Origin: an uncultured Nitrososphaerota archaeon
Lineage (GTDB): Archaea; Asgardarchaeota; Njordarchaeia; Njordarchaeales; Njordarchaeaceae
Length of the DNA stretch: 19,963 bases
Assembly: GCA_964518475.1 (NCBI GenBank)
Contig: CAZFGR010000028.1
Span: forward strand, 1 to 19,963
Reading direction: 5' to 3'
Within the stretch, counting starts at the first letter, position 1, and the number at the start of each line of letters is the position of its first letter. This document shows positions 3,740 to 16,063 of the stretch, one piece after another. The notes beneath the pieces were generated by a model, which was given only the letters and a program-made list of their open reading frames with translations, did no database searches and was not told the DNA's origin. The translations under genes and the position numbers were made by a program.

Positions 3740-4930
3740 ATGATTGAAGATTGGAAGAAGCTACCTATTGGTGCGAAAAGGCTGATAACGTACTACTCAA
3801 TATCCACTATTCCCCTAGTGGGTGATATTTTCCTCCCAATATACCTCTATACTAGGGGCTGGGAGCTGATCGAGGTAGGATTCTTATTATCCTTTGGTTT
3901 CATCATGGAGATTGTGGGCAGTTTCGTTATAGGGTATCTGTTTGATAAAGGCTTCCAGCCAAAGATTGCGATGTTTATCATAGACTTTGCATCAGGAATA
4001 ATCCATATTATCTACGCGATCGCTGGAGAGCCCGAACTAATATATCTCGGGTATAGTTTATGGGGTTTTCTAGCACCTCTAACAGTTGCTTACCAAACTA
4101 TTGAGAAAGAGGTATATCCAGAAACTAGCTACGAGGCTGCATTCTCCCTACACATGGCACTCCCAAATGCTACACAGCTTATAGGGATTATAGCGTATGG
4201 GTATTTTCTAACATACATCGCACCAAGACTAACTGGTTTCAGAATTTTTTATTTCTCCACAGCATCTCTTTACTTCATAACATCAATATATATCCTAGCA
4301 AGAATTCCGAGAACCAAAGAGAGAACAGTTGTTAGCGGTCTCACAATATCGAGAATCAGCAAGGACTTACTCCCATTTTTCGTCGCGGAAATATTGATTA
4401 TTTTTGGTTACCAAATAGCCCCCCAGTTCATTTACATGAATTACGTCTTTAACATCGCTGGGTTCAACATTTTTATGATCTCCCTCACGCTTATCCTGGC
4501 CAATATAGCGGGGGTAGTGGGAGGAGCAATAACTAGTGAGAAAGCGGGGAGACGCGAGCTTCTTTTCCCAGCAATCATGGTCTCGGCATCCTCTTATGCA
4601 TTAATGTACTTGGCAAAGTTTTTCCACAAGATCCTACAAGTATTTGTCTTCAGCTGCTTACACGTTTTCGTTTCTTACCTAGCCCATACTGTTTGGTTCG
4701 TTTATCATAGATCCCTGCTCTATGAGAGAGTTCCACAGGAACATAAAGGAAAAATTTTTGGCACATTATCTTCTATGAGAAACCTTATCTTCGCGATCAC
4801 GCCGATTGTCTCGGCTCAAATAGCTACGCTTATTGACCCATTATCGAACTTTCTTATCGCAGCCATAATAATTTTGATAGCAGCTGTTCCCTACATCTTT
4901 GTAATACGTACAGCTAAAAATGAGTCATAA
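3740..4930 (+). CDS. MFS transporter
   Basis: 396 aa with about 12 hydrophobic segments. MFS-type motifs GYLFDKG, GAITSEKAGRR and VPQEHKGKIFG. GGAGG RBS. Confidence 0.9.
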   Translation: MIEDWKKLPIGAKRLITYYSISTIPLVGDIFLPIYLYTRGWELIEVGFLLSFGFIMEIVGSFVIGYLFDKGFQPKIAMFIIDFASGIIHIIYAIAGEPELIYLGYSLWGFLAPLTVAYQTIEKEVYPETSYEAAFSLHMALPNATQLIGIIAYGYFLTYIAPRLTGFRIFYFSTASLYFITSIYILARIPRTKERTVVSGLTISRISKDLLPFFVAEILIIFGYQIAPQFIYMNYVFNIAGFNIFMISLTLILANIAGVVGGAITSEKAGRRELLFPAIMVSASSYALMYLAKFFHKILQVFVFSCLHVFVSYLAHTVWFVYHRSLLYERVPQEHKGKIFGTLSSMRNLIFAITPIVSAQIATLIDPLSNFLIAAIIILIAAVPYIFVIRTAKNES

Positions 4931-5031: not shown

Positions 5032-6414
5032 ATGCCTTCCGTAACCGACGTTGTTGATTATCTAATCAGGAAGGGAGTAGACTTCTGCGATGCCCGTCTA
5101 GAATCTCGGGGAACTCTTAGAATAGAGGTCGTGAATAGTGAAATAAGAGCAATAAGCAGTAATGAGCAACGGGGATTAGCCATAAGAGTATTGATTAATG
5201 GGGTCTGGGGCTATGCCTCTACGACAAGACTGGATAAAGAATCCATTAGAGAAGCTGCGGAAAAAGCCTTTAAAGCTGCAAAAGTTCTGGCAGAGAGAGC
5301 TGGTAGGAAGAAAATTTTATTAAACAGTATTGTTAGGACGGAGGAGGCAAAACCGCGCATATTGATACATCCCTGGGAAGTCCCTCTTTCTGAGAAGTTA
5401 GATGTACTATTCAGTATCAATAAAGTTCAGAAAGAGTATAGTGAAAAGATCGTTAATGTCACTACTAATTATCACGAAAGAATAGACCATTACGAGTTAG
5501 CGAATTCTCTAGGATCCCTCTTAGTATGGGATGAGATCCGCCTCTCCGTATCTTCGGCATCTATAGCGAGAGAAGCTGGTAAGATGCAATATTCTTTCAT
5601 GCGCAAGAGCGGGACAAGAGGGTTCGAGTTGCTTAAAGAATTAAACCCCGAGGAGGGCAGAAAAGTCTCTGAGGAAGCTGTTAAATTATTATCTGCTAAG
5701 AAGCCCCCTGCTGGATACTTAACAGTAATTGCGGATCCCTCCGTGGCTGGTGTATTAGCTCATGAAGTAATGGGTCATGCTTCCGAAGCAGACGAGGTTA
5801 TCAAGAAAAGAAGTTTCCTCACGGGAATCATTGGAGAACGCGTGGGTTCAGAATTGGTAACGATGGTGGACGATGGTACTCTTAATGGGGCCTATGGATC
5901 TATACCCTTTGACAGCGAAGGAACGCCTTCATCAAGAACTGTGATAATTAATAAAGGTGTATACACTAGCTATCTTCATAGTTTAGAAACTGCTTCTCTA
6001 ATGAGAGTAGAACCCACAGGAAATGGTAGAGCACAAGACTTCAATCGCAGAGTCTTTGTTAGGATGACAAATACTTTCTTCGAGCCCGGAGAATGGAGCT
6101 TTGATGAGATAATAAGTGATACAAAGGAAGGATTATTGGCGTTGAAATCCATAGGAGGGATGGAGGATCCTGTAGGCGGCGGGTTCCAGACAACAGTCTT
6201 AATGGGTTATATCATAAAGAATGGGGAATTAACAGATCTCGTTAGAGGCTTCACATTAAGCGGAAAAGCGTTAGAGATCTTAAAAACGGTCGATGCAGTA
6301 AGCAAGGAATTTAGGTTAGAGGGTGGTCATTGCGGAAAAGGAGAAGAAGATTATGTCCCAGTCTCAATAGGCGGACCGTATATGAGAGCAAAAATGTTGG
6401 TTGGAGGTGGATGA
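5032..6414 (+). CDS. tldD: TldD family metalloprotease (catalytic subunit)
   Basis: GLAIRVLINGVWGYAST; metal-binding HEVMGHASEAD (HExxxH); FDSEGTP; TGNGRA; RMTNTF; conserved C-terminal Cys in GHCGKG...PVSIGGP. Confidence 0.95.
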   Translation: MPSVTDVVDYLIRKGVDFCDARLESRGTLRIEVVNSEIRAISSNEQRGLAIRVLINGVWGYASTTRLDKESIREAAEKAFKAAKVLAERAGRKKILLNSIVRTEEAKPRILIHPWEVPLSEKLDVLFSINKVQKEYSEKIVNVTTNYHERIDHYELANSLGSLLVWDEIRLSVSSASIAREAGKMQYSFMRKSGTRGFELLKELNPEEGRKVSEEAVKLLSAKKPPAGYLTVIADPSVAGVLAHEVMGHASEADEVIKKRSFLTGIIGERVGSELVTMVDDGTLNGAYGSIPFDSEGTPSSRTVIINKGVYTSYLHSLETASLMRVEPTGNGRAQDFNRRVFVRMTNTFFEPGEWSFDEIISDTKEGLLALKSIGGMEDPVGGGFQTTVLMGYIIKNGELTDLVRGFTLSGKALEILKTVDAVSKEFRLEGGHCGKGEEDYVPVSIGGPYMRAKMLVGGG

Positions 6415-6415
6415 G

Positions 6416-7759
6416 GTGGGAATTGATCTCCATGAACTTTCTGACTATGCTCTAGAAATCTCGAAAGCCGATCAGACCGAGGTATTCTCTATAAAAGCTA
6501 CAATGAGAAACTACTATATTGATGACGGCGTAGTAACGATCGGTACAGATAATACATGGGTGGGGGTAGGAGTTAAGAGCATTATAAAGAAAAAGATAGG
6601 ATATTTCTCCAAGACTATTCACAAAAAACGTGAAGTAGAAGGCATCGTCGAAAAATCCCTTGAAATAGCAAAGACCTCTCCCTCAGATGAAAAATTTACT
6701 AGTCTCCCAAGCCCAGAAAAAATCTCGGGGAATGTGGAGGGGGTATACGATGAGAATACAGCGCAGGCAGACCCTGGAGAAATTGTGGAGAATCTAGTTA
6801 CTTTTCTAGAGAGTGCTCAAAGAGAAGGAGTTAAAGTCATGAATGGTTTCCTAAGAATATCAGTTTTTGAGTTTGTTGTCAAGAACTCTCTGGGAGTGGA
6901 CTTCTCTCACAAAGGTACACTAGTCTACCTATTCGCCACAGCTAAGAAGGAGATGGGTGAAGGAATCATTAAGAGATTCTCTACCTCGCTTAAGGGAATA
7001 AATTACCAGGAGGCTGGTGAGGATCTATTCGAGAGAACAAAACTGGCTAGCAGTGCAAGAGCGTTTAAAGGTGTTAAGGAAGTAGATGCGATAATTGCCC
7101 CAATGGAAGCCGCTGGAATCCTCTCAGTAATACCTACCGCCGCGAGCGGAGAATTAATTAATCGGAGAGCCAGCCCTTGGATTAACAAACTCGGACAAGA
7201 AATAGCCTCAAAGGATTTAACAGTAATAGATGATGGCCGTCTCCCAGGAGGATTAAGGAGTGCATTAGCTGATGACGAGGGAGTCCCAACTACTAAGAAA
7301 CCTATTATAGAGAGTGGTATTCTAAAGAACTACTTATTCGACACATACAATGCGGGAATAGCAGGCACAAAGTCCACGGGGAACGGCTTTAGACGGGGCG
7401 TAACAAGTATCGAGGATGCTCATACAAGACCAGTATCATGCGAAGCCTCAAACGTGATCATCCAAGCAGGGAATAAAGACTTGCAAGATCTAATCAGTGA
7501 GACTGATGAAGGAGTACTAATCTACAAATTCGCTTACCCACAAGTAGATCCCATATCTGGAAACTTCGGTTTAGAAGTCAGAAATGCTGTGCTGATAGAG
7601 AATGGTAGTGCCGAAACAGCCATAAAACACGCAATACTTGCTGGAAACATCTATACCGCATTAAGAAACATAAGCGGCCTCGGAAAGCAACAATACTTCA
7701 TCGAAAACTTCCTAGTACCATATATAAGATTCTCTAAACTACAACTCGTCGGACTATAA
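6416..7759 (+). CDS. pmbA: PmbA/TldE family protein (non-catalytic partner of TldD)
   Basis: DDEGVPT, STGNGFR, VDPISGNF. Lacks the HExxxH motif and abuts the tldD stop. Likely start is GTG 6416 after GGAGGTG (ORF track start TTG 6401). Confidence 0.92.
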   Translation: MGIDLHELSDYALEISKADQTEVFSIKATMRNYYIDDGVVTIGTDNTWVGVGVKSIIKKKIGYFSKTIHKKREVEGIVEKSLEIAKTSPSDEKFTSLPSPEKISGNVEGVYDENTAQADPGEIVENLVTFLESAQREGVKVMNGFLRISVFEFVVKNSLGVDFSHKGTLVYLFATAKKEMGEGIIKRFSTSLKGINYQEAGEDLFERTKLASSARAFKGVKEVDAIIAPMEAAGILSVIPTAASGELINRRASPWINKLGQEIASKDLTVIDDGRLPGGLRSALADDEGVPTTKKPIIESGILKNYLFDTYNAGIAGTKSTGNGFRRGVTSIEDAHTRPVSCEASNVIIQAGNKDLQDLISETDEGVLIYKFAYPQVDPISGNFGLEVRNAVLIENGSAETAIKHAILAGNIYTALRNISGLGKQQYFIENFLVPYIRFSKLQLVGL

Positions 7760-9131: not shown

Positions 9132-9926
9132 TTATGAGCTGGTCTTAATAAATCTTAGAAGCTCCTTTTCTATTTCCTTAATAGTTTTATCTGCTATGTG
9201 AATTACTTTGATGTTTTCTGGTGATTTCTCTAATTCTTTTTCTAATCTTTCCTTTGCTCCCTTTAAAATTTGCCAATTAAGTTCTTCCGCTATAGAGTCT
9301 AGTACACTACATAGCTCAATGGGCCATGTTTTGGGATCGTTGCCACATATTAAAAGAAGAAATTCGCAATTCTCTTTTATTCTGGCGATAGAAAATACGC
9401 TCATTAAGATGCCTTTGTGATCCACTAGATCTAGTATTACCTGGGTGTCAAGTATTTCTCGTACAAATTTTTCATATTTCTCAAGTGCTAGCATTTCTCT
9501 TACTTCCGAAAGGATCTGAGGTATCACTAAACCATTGATTATTTTCACATACTTATTCTCACCGATCTTAAAGTCAAAGCTGACATGTAGTAATTCTGTC
9601 TCTGTCCCGTATTCTACATGGTTTTTTTCTAGAACTTCCTCAACAAGCTTTTTTATAAAGTAACAGTCAACTATTCCTGGTTTCGTGAGTTCCTGTCTTC
9701 CCTTCTCTGTTATCTTCAATAATATTTTCCTAGAACCTTTTCTCCTTAGCGGTTCTACGGATCCCTCCCTGATTAATTCCTTCACAAGCTCGTTAACCCA
9801 TGATTTACGTATTCCTAGTTTTTCTGACAGGTCTTTCTGGGACAATGGTTTGAAGTAGAGCAGTGTCAAAATCTGCTTTTTCCGAAGATTCCTTCTCACT
9901 CTCTTAACCCGTCTTCTATTTAGCAT
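9132..9926 (-). CDS. Winged-HTH (MarR/ArsR-like) protein with an uncharacterised C-terminal domain, possibly a degenerate PD-(D/E)XK fold
   Basis: QILTLLYFKPLSQKDLSEKLGIRKSWVNELVKELIREGSVE...KILLKITEKG is a typical MarR-type wHTH. The C-terminal VEEVLEKNHVEY...FDFKIGENKYVKI resembles the start of a restriction-endonuclease-like core. Confidence 0.75.
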   Translation of the reverse strand: MLNRRRVKRVRRNLRKKQILTLLYFKPLSQKDLSEKLGIRKSWVNELVKELIREGSVEPLRRKGSRKILLKITEKGRQELTKPGIVDCYFIKKLVEEVLEKNHVEYGTETELLHVSFDFKIGENKYVKIINGLVIPQILSEVREMLALEKYEKFVREILDTQVILDLVDHKGILMSVFSIARIKENCEFLLLICGNDPKTWPIELCSVLDSIAEELNWQILKGAKERLEKELEKSPENIKVIHIADKTIKEIEKELLRFIKTSS

Positions 9927-9986
9927 TTTACCTAACCAAACCTCATAATTACCGGAAATCTATTGATTATTATCATGGTGACCCTT

Positions 9987-11288
9987 ATGAAGATTAGTGT
10001 TACTGATACTCTCTCGGACACCATGGCGGTTATAGTCCATAGAGAACTTTTCCCAATTTATAAAGTTGCGATCATAAGTTCTAAGAACTACTCGCTACCC
10101 GTCTGTGTATTACCTAATGATCACCCAGATATCAACATCAAAATGGGAAGGGACGATATTTTGTTAACTTCAAAGATTCTGAAGGAACTTGAAGTTTCCG
10201 CGGACAAGCTTGAAGTAAGACCCGTCTCTAGGGGTCTTTTTGTCTATGGAACACTATTGCCTACCTGGATAACTCCTGAGGGAGAAATCGGTCATTGCTG
10301 GGCAAGACTTGACAGTTCTTTATCCGTTAAAACCGTTCTCAGAGATTACGAAATCATTTACAGAGGGGGATTACCGTATGCTCAACAAGCTTCTGGTGAA
10401 GACATTCTAGGTGTAACGTATCTAGAAGTCCCTCTTGAGGAGAAAAATAGGATTCACAATATTGAGATTTCAGCTGGTTATAAAGTATCAATAGAGAAAG
10501 GATATATTGTAGAAAACTTCCCTATGCGCAGAACAATCCAAGTAAAGTTTTATAGCAGTAGACGGAGATTAGAAGGGAGGAAAATATTCACGATGCTATA
10601 TGGGGAGACCTTCCATCTGAGAGGATCATTAGTTCATTATGAAAGCGACCCAACAGGTTACATAACATGGCTGCGAGGGAACTGTTCTCTGCTGCTAACT
10701 GTTCCGCACGGTGGTTACTGGCGACCAGTCAACATAGTTAAGAGAAGAGAAAAAGAAGCTGACGAAGAGACTCAAGAACTAGTGAGAGAACTCGTAAAGA
10801 ACTTCTACGAGTTGAGTAATGGAGCGTTTCTACCATATGTTGTCTTAGCTAATCTGCATAGGTCCCGAATCGACTTTAATAGAGACTATGAAATTCGAGA
10901 AACACGCATCGCAAAGAAATATCATAACAAGATAGAGACTTTCCTTAGGGAGAGAAATATATTCTTGTTACTTGATATCCACGGAATGAGTGAGAAAAAT
11001 AGACACGATATCGAACTCGGTACATGCGAAGGAAAAACTGTGAAAGGGTATGAAGAAGTCCTAGAAACTCTCTACACAGAACTAAAGAGAGAAAACTTCT
11101 CAGTTCTCGTAGACGAGTACTATCCTGGCGAGTACACTGTGAAGAGATATGGAGAAAACAAAAACGTCATTGCTATCCAAGTAGAAATAAATAAGCAACT
11201 CAGAAAACTACAGAGTTATAAAACAACAGCTAAAAGACTAGCTAAAGCATTCATAAAGACGCTTAGAACACTCAGAACCAAATTATAA
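9987..11288 (+). CDS. Fusion protein: possible double-psi barrel + gamma-glutamylcyclotransferase (GGCT/AIG2) + N-formylglutamate amidohydrolase (HutG-like Zn hydrolase)
   Basis: GGCT motifs: LFVYGTLL, GLPYA, ILGVTY, IHNIE...GY. Amidohydrolase motifs: LLTVPHGG, EADEET, RSRIDFNRD, YHNKI, LLDIHGM, IELGT, AIQVEINKQLR. Likely start is ATG 9987 after GGTGA (ORF track start 9963). Confidence 0.8.
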   Translation: MKISVTDTLSDTMAVIVHRELFPIYKVAIISSKNYSLPVCVLPNDHPDINIKMGRDDILLTSKILKELEVSADKLEVRPVSRGLFVYGTLLPTWITPEGEIGHCWARLDSSLSVKTVLRDYEIIYRGGLPYAQQASGEDILGVTYLEVPLEEKNRIHNIEISAGYKVSIEKGYIVENFPMRRTIQVKFYSSRRRLEGRKIFTMLYGETFHLRGSLVHYESDPTGYITWLRGNCSLLLTVPHGGYWRPVNIVKRREKEADEETQELVRELVKNFYELSNGAFLPYVVLANLHRSRIDFNRDYEIRETRIAKKYHNKIETFLRERNIFLLLDIHGMSEKNRHDIELGTCEGKTVKGYEEVLETLYTELKRENFSVLVDEYYPGEYTVKRYGENKNVIAIQVEINKQLRKLQSYKTTAKRLAKAFIKTLRTLRTKL

Positions 11289-11450: not shown

Positions 11451-12863
11451 TTGCTTCCTTCCATTCAATCCGGGGATTCGATTTTGCGCATAAGAAGAGT
11501 GGGTCTAGAACTAGCTATTGAGTTAGACGAGGACGAAACTCCTCTCAAAGATATACCAATAATCCTTGATAAGAAGACGAGGACTTGGCGTCTACTCCCG
11601 ATGTATTACTACGACTTGAAGCGTCGAGCTACTCTTCTAGGGTATGATGTGAAAACTAATCTACGTGGAAACATATCACTAAGCAATATTATTGCTTCTA
11701 AACTTTCTCGACAATATGAATTGAGGGATTATCAATTACAAGCCATTAATTTCTTGGCCAAGAATAACTGGCGCGGCGTGATTGTTCTCCCGACGGGTGC
11801 TGGGAAGACGTTGATAGGTATTGAAGCATTAAATCAGTTACGATTAAAAACGCTTATAGTCGTGCCTACGCTGGATCTCATGAACCAATGGTTAAGAAAA
11901 CTTAACGAGTCTTTAGGGATTCCGAGAAGTTTGATTGGTCTTTACGGTGGTGGAAAATACAGTATAAGAGAGATAACCATTGTAACTTATGCAAGCGCGC
12001 ATAAAAAAGAGTTCCTAGAAAAGGCGATGGATTATTTCGGATTCGTTATATTCGATGAAGCTCATCACTTAGCCACAGAGCTTAACAAGGAGATAGCGAA
12101 AAGACTCATAGCTCCTTACCGAATAGGTTTGACAGCAACTCCTGGAGAGAAACATAAAGTATTAGAGGCCCTCATTGGTCCCATCCTTAAAATTGCTACA
12201 TTCAAAGACTTAGTTTCAAAAGGCTATTTAGCAGAATTCAATTACAAAAGGATATACGTGAGACTCACTAGTGAGGAGGAAAAACGTTACCAAGAACTGA
12301 TGAAGACATATGTGGAGTACGTAACTAATCTCTCAGGAAAAGATGAGATTGAACGGTTTAGAGAACTGGTGAAAAAATCTGTGAGAGATTCTGAAGCTAG
12401 AAAAGCACTCTTAGCGAGGATAGAAGCTAAGAACATAGCTCTTAAGGCACGGGAAAAGATTGAGGTTTTGAAGGATCTGTTAAGTAGGCATAAAAAGGAT
12501 AAAGTGATCATATTTACACGCCACGTAGATGCGGCTAAATACATATCAGTAATGTTCGGCATACCCTATATCACGGGAGACATGGACAAAAAGAGAAGAA
12601 AAGAAATATTGAAGATGTTCGAAGAGGGGAAAGTAACAAAGCTTGTAACTGCTGAAGTCTTAGATGAGGGTATGGATCTCCCCTCAGCCTCTGTGGGAAT
12701 AATTCTGGCTGGAAGACCATCCAAGAGGCAATTAATTCAGAGAATTGGTCGCTTGTTACGACCTAAAAACGGTAAGAAGGCGATGATTTACGAAGTGGTG
12801 ACCAGAGCAACTTATGACTTCTTCGCTTCTAAGAAAAGAAGAATTCGATTCCACGAGTTGTAA
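11451..12863 (+). CDS. xpb: XPB/Rad25-like SF2 DNA helicase
   Basis: LRDYQ, Walker A LPTGAGKT, DEAH, GLTAT, LDEGMDLP, QRIGRLLRP. Adjacent to a DUF790/Bax1 gene. The true start may be TTG 11484. Confidence 0.92.
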   Translation: MLPSIQSGDSILRIRRVGLELAIELDEDETPLKDIPIILDKKTRTWRLLPMYYYDLKRRATLLGYDVKTNLRGNISLSNIIASKLSRQYELRDYQLQAINFLAKNNWRGVIVLPTGAGKTLIGIEALNQLRLKTLIVVPTLDLMNQWLRKLNESLGIPRSLIGLYGGGKYSIREITIVTYASAHKKEFLEKAMDYFGFVIFDEAHHLATELNKEIAKRLIAPYRIGLTATPGEKHKVLEALIGPILKIATFKDLVSKGYLAEFNYKRIYVRLTSEEEKRYQELMKTYVEYVTNLSGKDEIERFRELVKKSVRDSEARKALLARIEAKNIALKAREKIEVLKDLLSRHKKDKVIIFTRHVDAAKYISVMFGIPYITGDMDKKRRKEILKMFEEGKVTKLVTAEVLDEGMDLPSASVGIILAGRPSKRQLIQRIGRLLRPKNGKKAMIYEVVTRATYDFFASKKRRIRFHEL

Positions 12864-12879
12864 AAGAGGGTTTTTATTA

Positions 12880-14157
12880 ATGATTCCTTTGTCCGCTCTT
12901 CCAGTCATCATAAGAGGAAAAACATTGATTCCGAGGTTTCTCTATCCCAAACATGTCAGTCTAGTGGCTTCATTAATCGATTTTGTAGAGGAGTTTGTAG
13001 ATAAGAATATCACGGAGACTCAACTTAAAAGGCTGATAGAGGGGTTAGTGGGGGATTATAGGTTATCTAGGGCTTTATTTTATACCCTAAAATATTTCTA
13101 CGAGTTCAGGACTACAGGATTAAGTGATTCCGAGATAAAGTATTTATCGAGTAGGTTAAATATCTCAGATGAGTGGGGATTAAAGAAGCTCTTCTATAAA
13201 TGGGTTCATGAAAAATACGGCTTTCTTGAACCAGAAAATAGGCTCGTAGCCTTGAGAGAATTTGCTACTGAAATAGGCATGTCTTTAGACACTATTAGGA
13301 GAGTAATAGAGAATGAGTTACCCGAGAAGACCATCTTTATCAGAAAAATGGCTGATAAGCCACGACCTTTAGCACTAATTGGTATGTACAATTTCTTGGT
13401 TCTAGAGAAACTCTTATCGATAAGCGACAAAGCCGTTCTTTACGTATTTGGCGAGGATCTAGGTACTACTGTGAAGAAGTTAATACTTAGGGCAAAGTGG
13501 CACGATGTACTCGCTGATTTTAAACATATCAATAAGGGAGTAGAGGTAACAATTACTGGTCCTCACCAACTATTTAAATTACCAGCTGTGAGTGAGTATG
13601 GCAAACACATCGCCGCTACGATAGCTCCTGTAATAGTGACCCGTGAAGCATGGCGCTTGAGAATATGGGTTATTTATAGGAAGAGGAGGTACTATTGCGA
13701 GATAAGTGGTTACCTAAGAGACTCACCTATCCTAAAACCTTACTGGGTATTAAACCCAACAGAAAAACCGAAAGAAACCTATGATAGCTCCGTGGAGAAA
13801 CGTCTTCATAGCATTCTTTCGCAAGTCTTAAAAAGAAACAACGCACGAGTTATCCGCGAATCCGATGTCTTGATACTCAGTAGTGGGAGAATAATAATCC
13901 CAGATCTCACAATAATAAGGAACGGTAAAAAAGTGTTCTTGGAGATTGTCGGGTATTGGCGCAAGGAGTATGTTGAGAAGAAACGAGAAAAATTGATTGA
14001 GGCTATGAGAAGTGGATTTAGGAACTTCGTAGCTGTTATAGATCATAAACTCAGAGGTAATTTTGAGGATACCCCGATCAATAAAGTATTTTATAGTGGT
14101 GACTATATCCCCGTCGGGAAACTCTGCCGTATAATAGATGACTTACTATCTTCTTAA
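12880..14157 (+). CDS. bax1: Bax1 (DUF790) endonuclease, partner of XPB
   Basis: N-terminal MIP...PRFL, ITGP..LF, and C-terminal nuclease core YDSSVEKRL...IIIPDL...FLEIVGYWRKEYVEKK. Likely start is ATG 12880 after GAGGG (ORF track start 12814 overlaps xpb). Confidence 0.9.
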   Translation: MIPLSALPVIIRGKTLIPRFLYPKHVSLVASLIDFVEEFVDKNITETQLKRLIEGLVGDYRLSRALFYTLKYFYEFRTTGLSDSEIKYLSSRLNISDEWGLKKLFYKWVHEKYGFLEPENRLVALREFATEIGMSLDTIRRVIENELPEKTIFIRKMADKPRPLALIGMYNFLVLEKLLSISDKAVLYVFGEDLGTTVKKLILRAKWHDVLADFKHINKGVEVTITGPHQLFKLPAVSEYGKHIAATIAPVIVTREAWRLRIWVIYRKRRYYCEISGYLRDSPILKPYWVLNPTEKPKETYDSSVEKRLHSILSQVLKRNNARVIRESDVLILSSGRIIIPDLTIIRNGKKVFLEIVGYWRKEYVEKKREKLIEAMRSGFRNFVAVIDHKLRGNFEDTPINKVFYSGDYIPVGKLCRIIDDLLSS

Positions 14158-15234: not shown

Positions 15235-15246
15235 GAGGTGTTTTTA

Positions 15247-15546
15247 TTGACCACGACTGTATGGACTATAAAAGTGGATAAAAAGATGGATGCGATAGTT
15301 GAGAAACTTGTTAGAGAACTTGGATATACTAGTAAGGCCGAGTTTATCAGAGAGGCTGTTAGGGAGGCTATAATTAGGAAATATATTGGATTATTGGGGT
15401 TATTCTCAATGGATAGGTTGCAGTCTTCTAAGGGAGACCCAATGAAAGCTCTCGAAAAACTCTCTAGACTGGGAATCGATAGATCCATTATTGAGAAAGA
15501 GCTAGAAATGGGAAAAAAGGATGTTGAAAAACTCATCACGGAGTAG
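15247..15546 (+). CDS. Ribbon-helix-helix (CopG-like) antitoxin, VapB-like
   Basis: TTVWTIKVDKKMDAIVEKLVRELGYTSKAEFIREAVREAI is a typical RHH. Overlaps the downstream PIN gene. TTG 15247 follows GAGGTG (ORF track start 15238). Confidence 0.85.
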   Translation: MTTTVWTIKVDKKMDAIVEKLVRELGYTSKAEFIREAVREAIIRKYIGLLGLFSMDRLQSSKGDPMKALEKLSRLGIDRSIIEKELEMGKKDVEKLITE

Positions 15547-16063
15547 GATTATAGTTCTTGATGCTAATATATGGATAAAAGGTCTCTTCGGAATAAGTAA
15601 GGAAGCCAGACAGATTATTAAGGATTGCTTAAATCGTAAGTTAAGGATTGTTGTGAACAGCTATATTGTAGCAGAAGTGGTGCGAGTTCTTAAAAGAATA
15701 GCTATGAGAAGCAAGTTGAATCCATTAAAATTAGAGAGAAATTTCTGGATAATAATCAATTCTGAGAGCGTGATAAAAGATTTTATTACACCAGTTTCCG
15801 AGGATTTAATAGAGTTTCTGAAAAATAAGGATGAAATCTTACTGATATCCAAGATATTTAATTTAGAGCCTAAAGACGTACCTTATATTGTTCTAGCTTT
15901 CAAATTTAAAGCCCCAATAATAACAGAAGATAAGAGAAGCATTTATATAAAGCGGAGAGAGATAGAAGAGAGAATCGGAATTAGAATTCTTACTCTGAAA
16001 GAATTTAAGGCATATAATAAAAAAATGAGACCTTGTCTCAAGTCTGTGTCATGGCCTTCATGA
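15521..16063 (+). CDS. vapC: PIN-domain ribonuclease toxin (VapC-like)
   Basis: Four acidic PIN residues retained: IVLDANI, IVAEV, EPKDVPY, IITEDK. Ends with GIRILTLKEF. Confidence 0.88.
   Translation: MLKNSSRSRIIVLDANIWIKGLFGISKEARQIIKDCLNRKLRIVVNSYIVAEVVRVLKRIAMRSKLNPLKLERNFWIIINSESVIKDFITPVSEDLIEFLKNKDEILLISKIFNLEPKDVPYIVLAFKFKAPIITEDKRSIYIKRREIEERIGIRILTLKEFKAYNKKMRPCLKSVSWPS

Follow-up and report, generated by a model that had tools for sequence, protein, structure and literature searches.

A Njordarchaeales protein combining a double-psi beta-barrel with GGACT-like and FGase-family domains, a putative two-site enzyme acting on glutamyl amides

The gene and its host

The stretch of DNA analysed here, contig CAZFGR010000028.1 of assembly GCA_964518475.1 (19,963 nucleotides in full length, hereafter the window), carries at 9987-11288 of the plus strand an open reading frame (ORF) of 433 codons, closed by a TAA/TAG-type stop codon at 11286-11288. 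Its 433-residue product, P0001, consists of an N-terminal double-psi beta-barrel (DPBB), a middle domain resembling gamma-glutamyl(amine) cyclotransferases of the AIG2/GGACT type, and a C-terminal domain of the N-formylglutamate amidohydrolase (FGase) family. That the ORF is a genuine gene, as opposed to a fortuitous reading frame, follows from its full-length homologs and from conservation over its whole length: in a collection of 5.8 billion protein clusters, six further 90%-identity clusters match P0001 from end to end (E 2e-137 to 9e-94), and the resulting seven-sequence alignment is conserved throughout, about 100 of its columns being invariant. Translation could also start upstream, at an in-frame TTG (9963); the N-termini of all homologs nonetheless align to the ATG at 9987. 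P0001 has no N-terminal hydrophobic signal and is therefore presumably cytoplasmic.

The genome to which the window belongs (G000) comprises 2.33 Mb in 121 contigs and is 91% complete. Its host is a Njordarchaeales-type Asgard archaeon, and the neighbours of the gene in the window are archaeal as well, namely Nre, XPB with Bax1/DUF790, TrmO and an archaeal-type inositol-1-phosphate synthase. A first-pass annotation, made from the letters of the window, had read a set of motifs in this ORF, all of which we located in the translation: LFVYGTL at aa 84-90, IHNIE...GY at 156-165, PHGG at 240-243, EAD at 257-259, RSRIDFNR at 292-299, DIHG at 330-333 and QVEI at 398-401. The GGCT/AIG2 module and the N-formylglutamate-amidohydrolase-type module that it derived from these motifs both held up, and its guess of a Cdc48-N-type double-psi barrel ahead of them proved right at the level of the fold.

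Domain structure

The C-terminal domain (10623..11285, plus strand; aa 213-433) is a Zn amidohydrolase domain of the FGase family, with the HutG-type fold. P0001 matches Pfam PF05013 with 60.9 bits against a cut-off of 28.9 (E 2.6e-16), and all full-length homologs pass this cut-off too. In the AlphaFold2 (AF2) model of the whole protein, the C-terminal part has a predicted local distance difference test (pLDDT) score of 80-96, and its top PDB match in Foldseek is the FGase 2q7s (E 4.6e-8, TMt 0.59). It is followed by succinylglutamate desuccinylase 1yw4 (1.1e-5), Atu2144 2odf (1.4e-5) and the poly-gamma-glutamate hydrolase PghP 3a9l (2.8e-5), and, more weakly, by M14-like carboxypeptidases, YndL 5onj (9e-5) and CCP5 8v3p (2.5e-4).

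Sequence analysis of the same domain in a 39-sequence alignment that includes FGase-only relatives revealed five invariant residues, H241, N298, D330, H332 and E400 (H29, N86, D118, H120 and E188 in domain numbering), together with the near-invariant D259, R292, D296, Q398 and R406. The corresponding codons lie at 10707-10709 (His241), 10761-10763 (Asp259), 10860-10880 (R292/D296/N298), 10974-10982 (Asp330/His332) and 11178-11186 (Gln398/Glu400), with Arg406 following shortly after. The profile built from these 39 sequences places the P0001 motif set on the equivalent motifs of 2q7s, and for particular residues of this domain we infer a role in Zn binding. Against the HutG equivalog model TIGR02017 (NCBIfam, cut-off 278.75 bits), P0001 gave zero matches at E<=1, and its paralogs P0011 and P0013 scored only 35.9 and 25 bits; Pfam likewise returned zero matches of P0001 to PF05908 (PghP), for which the best homolog, P0008, reached 15.6 bits at a cut-off of 22. 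Outside the three-domain family, the closest FGase relative is P0015, a metagenomic protein of 553 aa with a tandem double FGase domain.

The middle domain (10230..10622, plus strand; aa 82-212) is, by family-level homology of its sequence, a GGACT/AIG2-like domain. Five homologs pass the PF06094 (GGACT) cut-off of 22.8 bits, namely P0008 (25.8), P0011 (34.8), P0012 (38.4), P0013 (32.6) and P0017 (28.3 bits), and a 14-sequence profile of the segment retrieved from the PDB the AIG2-like/GGACT-like structures 2jqv (1.3e-6), 1v30 (1.2e-5) and 2g0q (5.7e-5). The profile could further be aligned, from one end to the other, with mouse GGACT (2kl2/1vkb), whose catalytic site comprises Tyr7-Leu10, Ile50, Glu82 and Tyr88 (PMC2954230); the YGSL motif and Glu82 are the hallmark of the superfamily (PMC12569754). 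In the hidden Markov model alignment, Y87-G88-T89-L90 of P0001 falls on Tyr7-Leu10, L129 on Ile50, E160 on Glu82 and Y165 on Tyr88. The corresponding codons lie at 10245-10256 (YGTL), 10371-10376 (L129-P130), 10464-10466 (Glu160, the putative catalytic residue) and 10479-10481 (Tyr165). E160 is kept in 19 of the 21 family sequences that cover the position; more generally, both catalytic residue sets, that of the cyclotransferase and that of the hydrolase, are kept in nearly all 22 family members and are invariant among the seven closest sequences. When the alignment of the GGACT domain was used in a word-index search for relatives consisting of this domain alone, zero candidates scored.

Some members of the family depart from this pattern. 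In the P0014/G296 lineage (L043 9349-10731), the cyclotransferase domain no longer has YGTL or its catalytic Glu, and the fragment P0047 (L050 32-925) has its FGase histidines replaced, with PHGG changed to VYGG and DIHG to DLRG. From their sequences, these members look like pseudo-enzymes.

The N-terminal domain (9987..10229, plus strand; aa 1-81) is predicted to form a barrel of six strands and one helix. When 84 residues of this region were modelled alone (AF2, 21-sequence alignment), the model reached a pLDDT of 92.2 and a predicted template modelling (pTM) score of 0.81. Its best Foldseek match is the N-domain of archaeal AMP phosphorylase, 4ga5 (E 7.5e-5, TM 0.62), below which stand kiwellin, the N-domains of p97/VCP, NSF and VAT, and computationally designed DPBB proteins. 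VIA, an aligner independent of Foldseek, also put 4ga5 on top (Z 7.8 over 78 residues), ahead of the designed DPBB 7dww (Z 7.0), Pex1/Pex6, CDC48A-N and VAT-DPBB 7dbo (Z 6.3); Z scores below 8 are middling in absolute terms, and the argument rests on the consistency of the match list, in which all top rows are DPBB. A shape search in the ESM Atlas likewise returned AMP-phosphorylase-type proteins together with Molydop_binding and CDC48_N clusters. By sequence, aa 1-81 gave zero Pfam matches at E<=1, including to PF02359 (CDC48_N) or other DPBB families, and the 21-sequence profile of the domain found only chance matches among PDB sequences. The predicted structure supports the assignment of aa 1-81 as a DPBB by fold, not by family membership.

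Distribution of the three-domain family

An exhaustive phmmer search of 1.84 billion representative proteins gave 431 matches to P0001. Full-length coverage is limited to about a dozen of them (P0003, P0008, P0009, P0011-P0014 and fragments), the rest matching in the FGase domain only; all of these three-domain clusters, about a dozen among about 1.8 billion representatives, come from Njordarchaeales-type archaea. A parallel search covered 400 Asgard genomes, in which the order is represented by 14 (G000 and G284-G296). Full-length matches were present in the genus of the host (G000, G286, G289), in all five genomes of its sister genus (G292-G296), where up to three copies of the three-domain gene occur per genome, and in G309. 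Other Asgard genomes contain only matching FGase-only genes of about 250 aa.

The combination of DPBB, GGACT and FGase domains is uncharacterised, although all three superfamilies are already known, and no description of the three-domain architecture turned up in the literature searched. The first-pass annotation had not recognised the architecture as characterised either; the family is nevertheless less isolated than that statement suggested, given the two-domain fusions in bacteria and a set of distant paralogs linked to urocanase genes. In the Atlas, PF05908 co-occurs with PF06094/PF13772 in two Actinomycetota clusters of about 340-350 aa (63 and 223 members), and Thermodesulfobacteriota contribute a GGACT cluster of 326 aa; the similarity scores of these fusion clusters are below 0.9, hence they are leads only. 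PF06094 and PF05908 also stand next to each other, with the same P-value, in a Pfam-domain table comparing mycobacteria and related actinomycetes (PMC3388012). The bacterial and archaeal fusions probably arose independently, since bacterial cyclotransferase-hydrolase fusions are missing among the best 150 of the 431 phmmer hits and GGACT was found in none of the 12 FGase-containing matches scanned from outside the three-domain family, ten of which are multidomain proteins.

The winged-helix partner and the local neighbourhood

Upstream of the enzyme gene and divergent from it lies a gene on the minus strand (9132..9926) that encodes P0157, a protein of 264 aa with an N-terminal winged helix-turn-helix (aa ~15-70) and a C-terminal part of about 190 aa. 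The N-terminus shows weak MarR/TrmB/HTH_24 matches, and aa 75-264 matched no known family. Homologs of P0157 adjoin the enzyme gene in the same divergent arrangement in G286, G292, G295 and G293, and the copy in G290 lies 15 bp from a contig end. Across the 400 Asgard genomes, hits at E 1e-11 or better are confined to the two enzyme-bearing genera, with one copy per genome; the sole other match is weak and partial (G365, E 6.5e-7, aa 21-145, with one in-frame TGA). P0157 is probably a dedicated transcription regulator of the enzyme gene.

The spacer between the two genes (9927..9986) measures 60 bp and must hold both promoters. The orthologous spacers are of similar length in G286 and G292 (46-60 bp with the window included) and at least 69 bp in G293 and G295 according to our own ORF calls. 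Two TTACCKRA boxes stand in the spacer at 9928-9935 and 9949-9956, 21 bp apart, and G286 and G295 have similar paired boxes in their orthologous spacers. The pair is a weak candidate for an operator, because the 8-mer is so common in the window, occurring 10 times against 2.7 expected.

Several other gene groups surround this pair on the plus strand. Directly downstream of the enzyme gene, at 11451-14157, are an XPB-type helicase gene and a DUF790/Bax1-type gene, which form the XPB-Bax1 pair usual in archaea. Two paired metallopeptidase genes of the TldD/PmbA type occupy 5032-7759, downstream of the gene for an MFS transporter (3740-4930); in G296, a homologous TldD/PmbA pair is located about 5 kb away from the distant paralog (L043 1892-4668). 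At 15238-16063, a small RHH-type gene overlaps a PIN-domain gene (RHH_1 and PIN in the gene calls of the identical public contig), forming a VapBC-like toxin-antitoxin pair. Inositol-1-phosphate synthase, TldD/PmbA and XPB-Bax1 were considered as functional neighbours of the enzyme and set aside, none of them being kept next to its orthologs.

A glutamate-ligase-like operon and an oxoprolinase candidate

The only other FGase-family gene of G000 encodes a 305-aa protein and belongs to a three-gene operon on contig C12 (17984-21642; locus L052 5982-9643, minus strand), hereafter the triad, in which it stands between the genes of a 417-aa ATP-grasp protein and a 481-aa GCS2/YbdK-like carboxylate-amine ligase. 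The named families nearest to the ATP-grasp protein are the glutamate ligases MptN, glutathione synthetase, RimK and LysX, and also TTL and YheCD, all of them far under their cut-offs; those nearest to the GCS2 protein are YbdK and the gamma-Glu-Cys ligases, again far under cut-offs. RimK-type ligases (PF08443), which the first-pass annotation had proposed to look for beside such fusions, were not found in G000. The triad is kept as an operon in six further genomes, and its ATP-grasp gene occurs in 10 of the 400 Asgard genomes (G000, G286, G289, G290, G292-G296 and G007). Within the order, the genomes with the triad, nine of the 14, are exactly those with the three-domain gene (for G290, the partner gene at the contig end), and in the five others (G287, G288, G291, G284 and G285) the genes for the enzyme, its partner and the ATP-grasp protein are all absent. 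Around the FGase-only genes of other Asgard families, tblastn detected no ATP-grasp or GCS2 homologs nearby. A 2009 amidoligase paper by Iyer and Aravind is said to describe ATP-grasp/GCS2/FGase neighbourhoods. The triad is adjoined by a divergent gene for a Ras-family small GTPase.

G000 also encodes, on contig C59 (1851-5605; L053), a hydantoinase/oxoprolinase-type pair, HyuA of 699 aa and HyuB of 552 aa, whose family also comprises the ATP-dependent 5-oxoprolinases. This pair is a candidate 5-oxoprolinase that could recycle the product of a cyclotransferase; an oxoprolinase of the PxpA type (PF03746) was not found in G000.

Putative function

We propose that P0001 uses two active sites to break a glutamyl amide down to 5-oxoproline, a reading to which we give a probability of about one half. 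In this putative model, both catalytic domains would act in sequence on one glutamate-containing amide. Initially, the FGase domain would hydrolyse the amide at the glutamyl residue, whether by taking off an N-acyl/N-formyl-type group or by cleaving a glutamyl linkage, and would thereby expose a free alpha-amino gamma-glutamyl amide. Afterwards, the GGACT domain would cyclise the exposed gamma-glutamyl amide to 5-oxoproline, accompanied by release of the amine, and the HyuA/HyuB-type candidate might finally reopen 5-oxoproline to glutamate. The barrel would serve in oligomerisation or in the docking of a substrate or partner, like its counterparts in AMP phosphorylase or Cdc48; transcription of the gene pair would be controlled by the divergent winged-helix protein. 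The substrate could plausibly originate from the ATP-grasp/FGase/GCS2 amidoligase operon, which shares the narrow phyletic range of the enzyme. An arrangement of this kind is familiar from butirosin, where the ATP-grasp enzyme BtrJ adds a gamma-glutamyl group and the GGACT-like enzyme BtrG removes it.

Several observations weigh against this model. P0001 itself scores only 13.4 bits against PF06094 (E 0.12), under the cut-off that its homologs pass. The whole-protein AF2 model, built from seven sequences, has a mean pLDDT of 65 and falls below 50 for aa 82-148 and 159-208, too low to show a GGCT-type barrel with its pocket or how the two active sites lie with respect to each other. The triad and the enzyme gene are unlinked, lying on separate contigs, and outside the order they part company: G007 has the triad without the enzyme, and G309 an enzyme homolog without the triad. 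Their co-distribution within the order may reflect one or two events, as these genomes are closely related and several of them incomplete. HyuAB enzymes have substrates besides 5-oxoproline. Finally, the distant paralogs linked to urocanase genes in the sister genus hint at an ancestral role of the N-formylglutamate or formiminoglutamate type.

The last of these observations leads to an alternative that we consider unlikely, in which P0001 would be a HutG-type N-formylglutamate (or N-formimino-glutamate) amidohydrolase carrying out the last step of histidine breakdown, with its other domains merely accessory. The best Pfam and fold matches of the C-terminal domain are indeed to FGase, and the sister genus carries hutH, hutU and hutI, while neither FTCD nor the HutF equivalog was found in the order. 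In two genomes of that genus, a three-domain paralog of about 30% identity sits in a collinear cluster of aldehyde:ferredoxin oxidoreductase (AFOR), aldo/keto reductase, paralog and urocanase (L045 990-6975, G292:C57; L043 7429-13488, G296:C23), and another three-domain copy lies about 1.2 kb from the end of a histidase gene (G292:C56). The paralog beside urocanase is, however, missing in two of the four sister-genus genomes that have urocanase. The linked copies appear from sequence comparison to evolve fast, being only 44% identical to each other though their flanks are 75-92% identical, and the copy of the G296 lineage is the one without YGTL and the Glu160 equivalent. Arginase-type formiminoglutamase-like genes of the sister genus (158-188 bits) could, moreover, complete its hut pathway without the three-domain protein. 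In G000 itself the pathway is absent: the first-pass annotation had reported no hut genes in the window, which we confirmed and could extend to the whole 91%-complete genome, where no histidase (PF00221), urocanase (PF01175) or imidazolonepropionase (HutI, TIGR01224) scored above cut-off. Histidase and urocanase were not found in the congener G286 either, HutI having been examined in G000 only of this genus. A complete hut pathway, which the annotation had named as an argument for an enzyme acting only on N-formylglutamate, is thus not encoded in G000, and because G000 lacks all three enzymes, P0001 is, judged from gene content, not part of histidine utilisation in its host. The distance of P0001 and its paralogs from the HutG equivalog, 25-36 bits for the latter against 279 required, points the same way.

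Two further alternatives concern what the domains do together. P0001 could be an eraser of protein or peptide tags, in which the barrel docks the substrate, the FGase-fold domain trims glutamyl tails or isopeptides produced by the ATP-grasp/GCS2 operon, leaving a final gamma-glutamyl-lysine-type remnant for the GGACT domain to clear. The fold matches of the barrel to the adaptor- and substrate-binding N-domains of Cdc48/p97/NSF/Pex1, those of the hydrolase domain to PghP, YndL and CCP5, and the co-distribution with an operon whose ATP-grasp protein resembles TTL and RimK are consistent with such an activity, and the known GGACT substrate is gamma-glutamyl-epsilon-lysine (PMC2954230, citing Oakley 2010). 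The matches to CCP and PghP are, however, weaker than that to FGase, no RimK-family protein was matched in G000, and neither locus showed a gene for a target protein or a precursor peptide nearby. The best match of the barrel, moreover, is to AMP phosphorylase, whose N-domain mediates multimerisation and not substrate binding, and we regard the tag eraser as improbable. It is also doubtful that only one of the domains is catalytic, either as a single N-acyl-amino-acid amidohydrolase whose GGACT-like domain binds a ligand or regulates, or as a cyclotransferase with a degenerate hydrolase. The sub-threshold GGACT score of P0001, the loss of YGTL and Glu160 in P0014 (L043) and that of the FGase histidines in P0047 would fit such a protein. 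Both residue sets are nonetheless intact in P0001 and its orthologs and invariant among the seven closest sequences, and the independent bacterial fusions of the same two chemistries argue for coupled catalysis.

A more specific idea is quite improbable as a whole: the triad might write a glutamyl-type modification or metabolite which P0001, as its dedicated enzyme, erases or recycles, within a reversible glutamylation (or glutamyl-peptide) system specific to Njordarchaeales. Recognition of the modified protein or peptide would then fall to the Cdc48-N-like barrel, and sensing of the released product to the winged-helix protein. In more general terms, the bacterial cyclotransferase/amidohydrolase fusions, which are apparently independent, suggest that the two-step dismantling of glutamyl amides via 5-oxoproline may be a recurring, as yet unassigned route. 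The three-domain form is lineage-specific, tightly coupled to a private regulator and co-distributed with the glutamate-type amidoligase operon. In Asgard archaea the enzyme could reveal a lineage-specific glutamyl metabolite or modification, and identification of its substrate would give a function to several orphan families at once.

Comparison with known systems

Compared with the N-formylglutamate amidohydrolase family (PF05013; 2q7s, 2odf and HutG of Pseudomonas-type hut pathways), P0001 shares the fold in its C-terminal 220 aa and keeps the PH-G, D, R-x3-D-x-N-R, D-x-H-G and Q-x-E motifs; it differs from HutG in not being an equivalog, in residing in a genome without hut genes and in bearing two extra N-terminal domains. 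Its FGase domain is also of a Zn-hydrolase fold class related to PghP/YndL and the M14-like deglutamylases (CCP5 and MpaA-type), which act on glutamyl amide bonds, but the likeness to PghP is at the fold level only, PF05908 being unmatched. With the GGACT/AIG2-like proteins (PF06094; 3juc, 2kl2, 1vkb, 2jqv and 1v30 PH0828), P0001 has in common the YGTL loop and the equivalents of Ile50, Glu82 and Tyr88. The known members of that family are single-domain proteins of about 120-170 aa, whereas the domain in P0001 is divergent and sits between two others.

The barrel, in turn, has the same predicted fold as the N-domains of AMP phosphorylase (4ga5) and of Cdc48/p97/VAT/NSF/Pex1, with a TM score of 0.6 and Z 6-8 over 75-78 aligned residues of aa 1-84. 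It shows no detectable sequence similarity to them, and it is joined to hydrolase and cyclotransferase domains instead of a phosphorylase or an AAA+ ATPase. A parallel in architecture is provided by the uncharacterised bacterial fusions with a GGACT/AIG2 domain, such as those of Actinomycetota, which at about 326-352 aa lack the DPBB and have PF05908 or an unannotated part as their hydrolase half in place of the PF05013 domain of P0001, yet unite, as P0001 does, the same two chemistries in one polypeptide.

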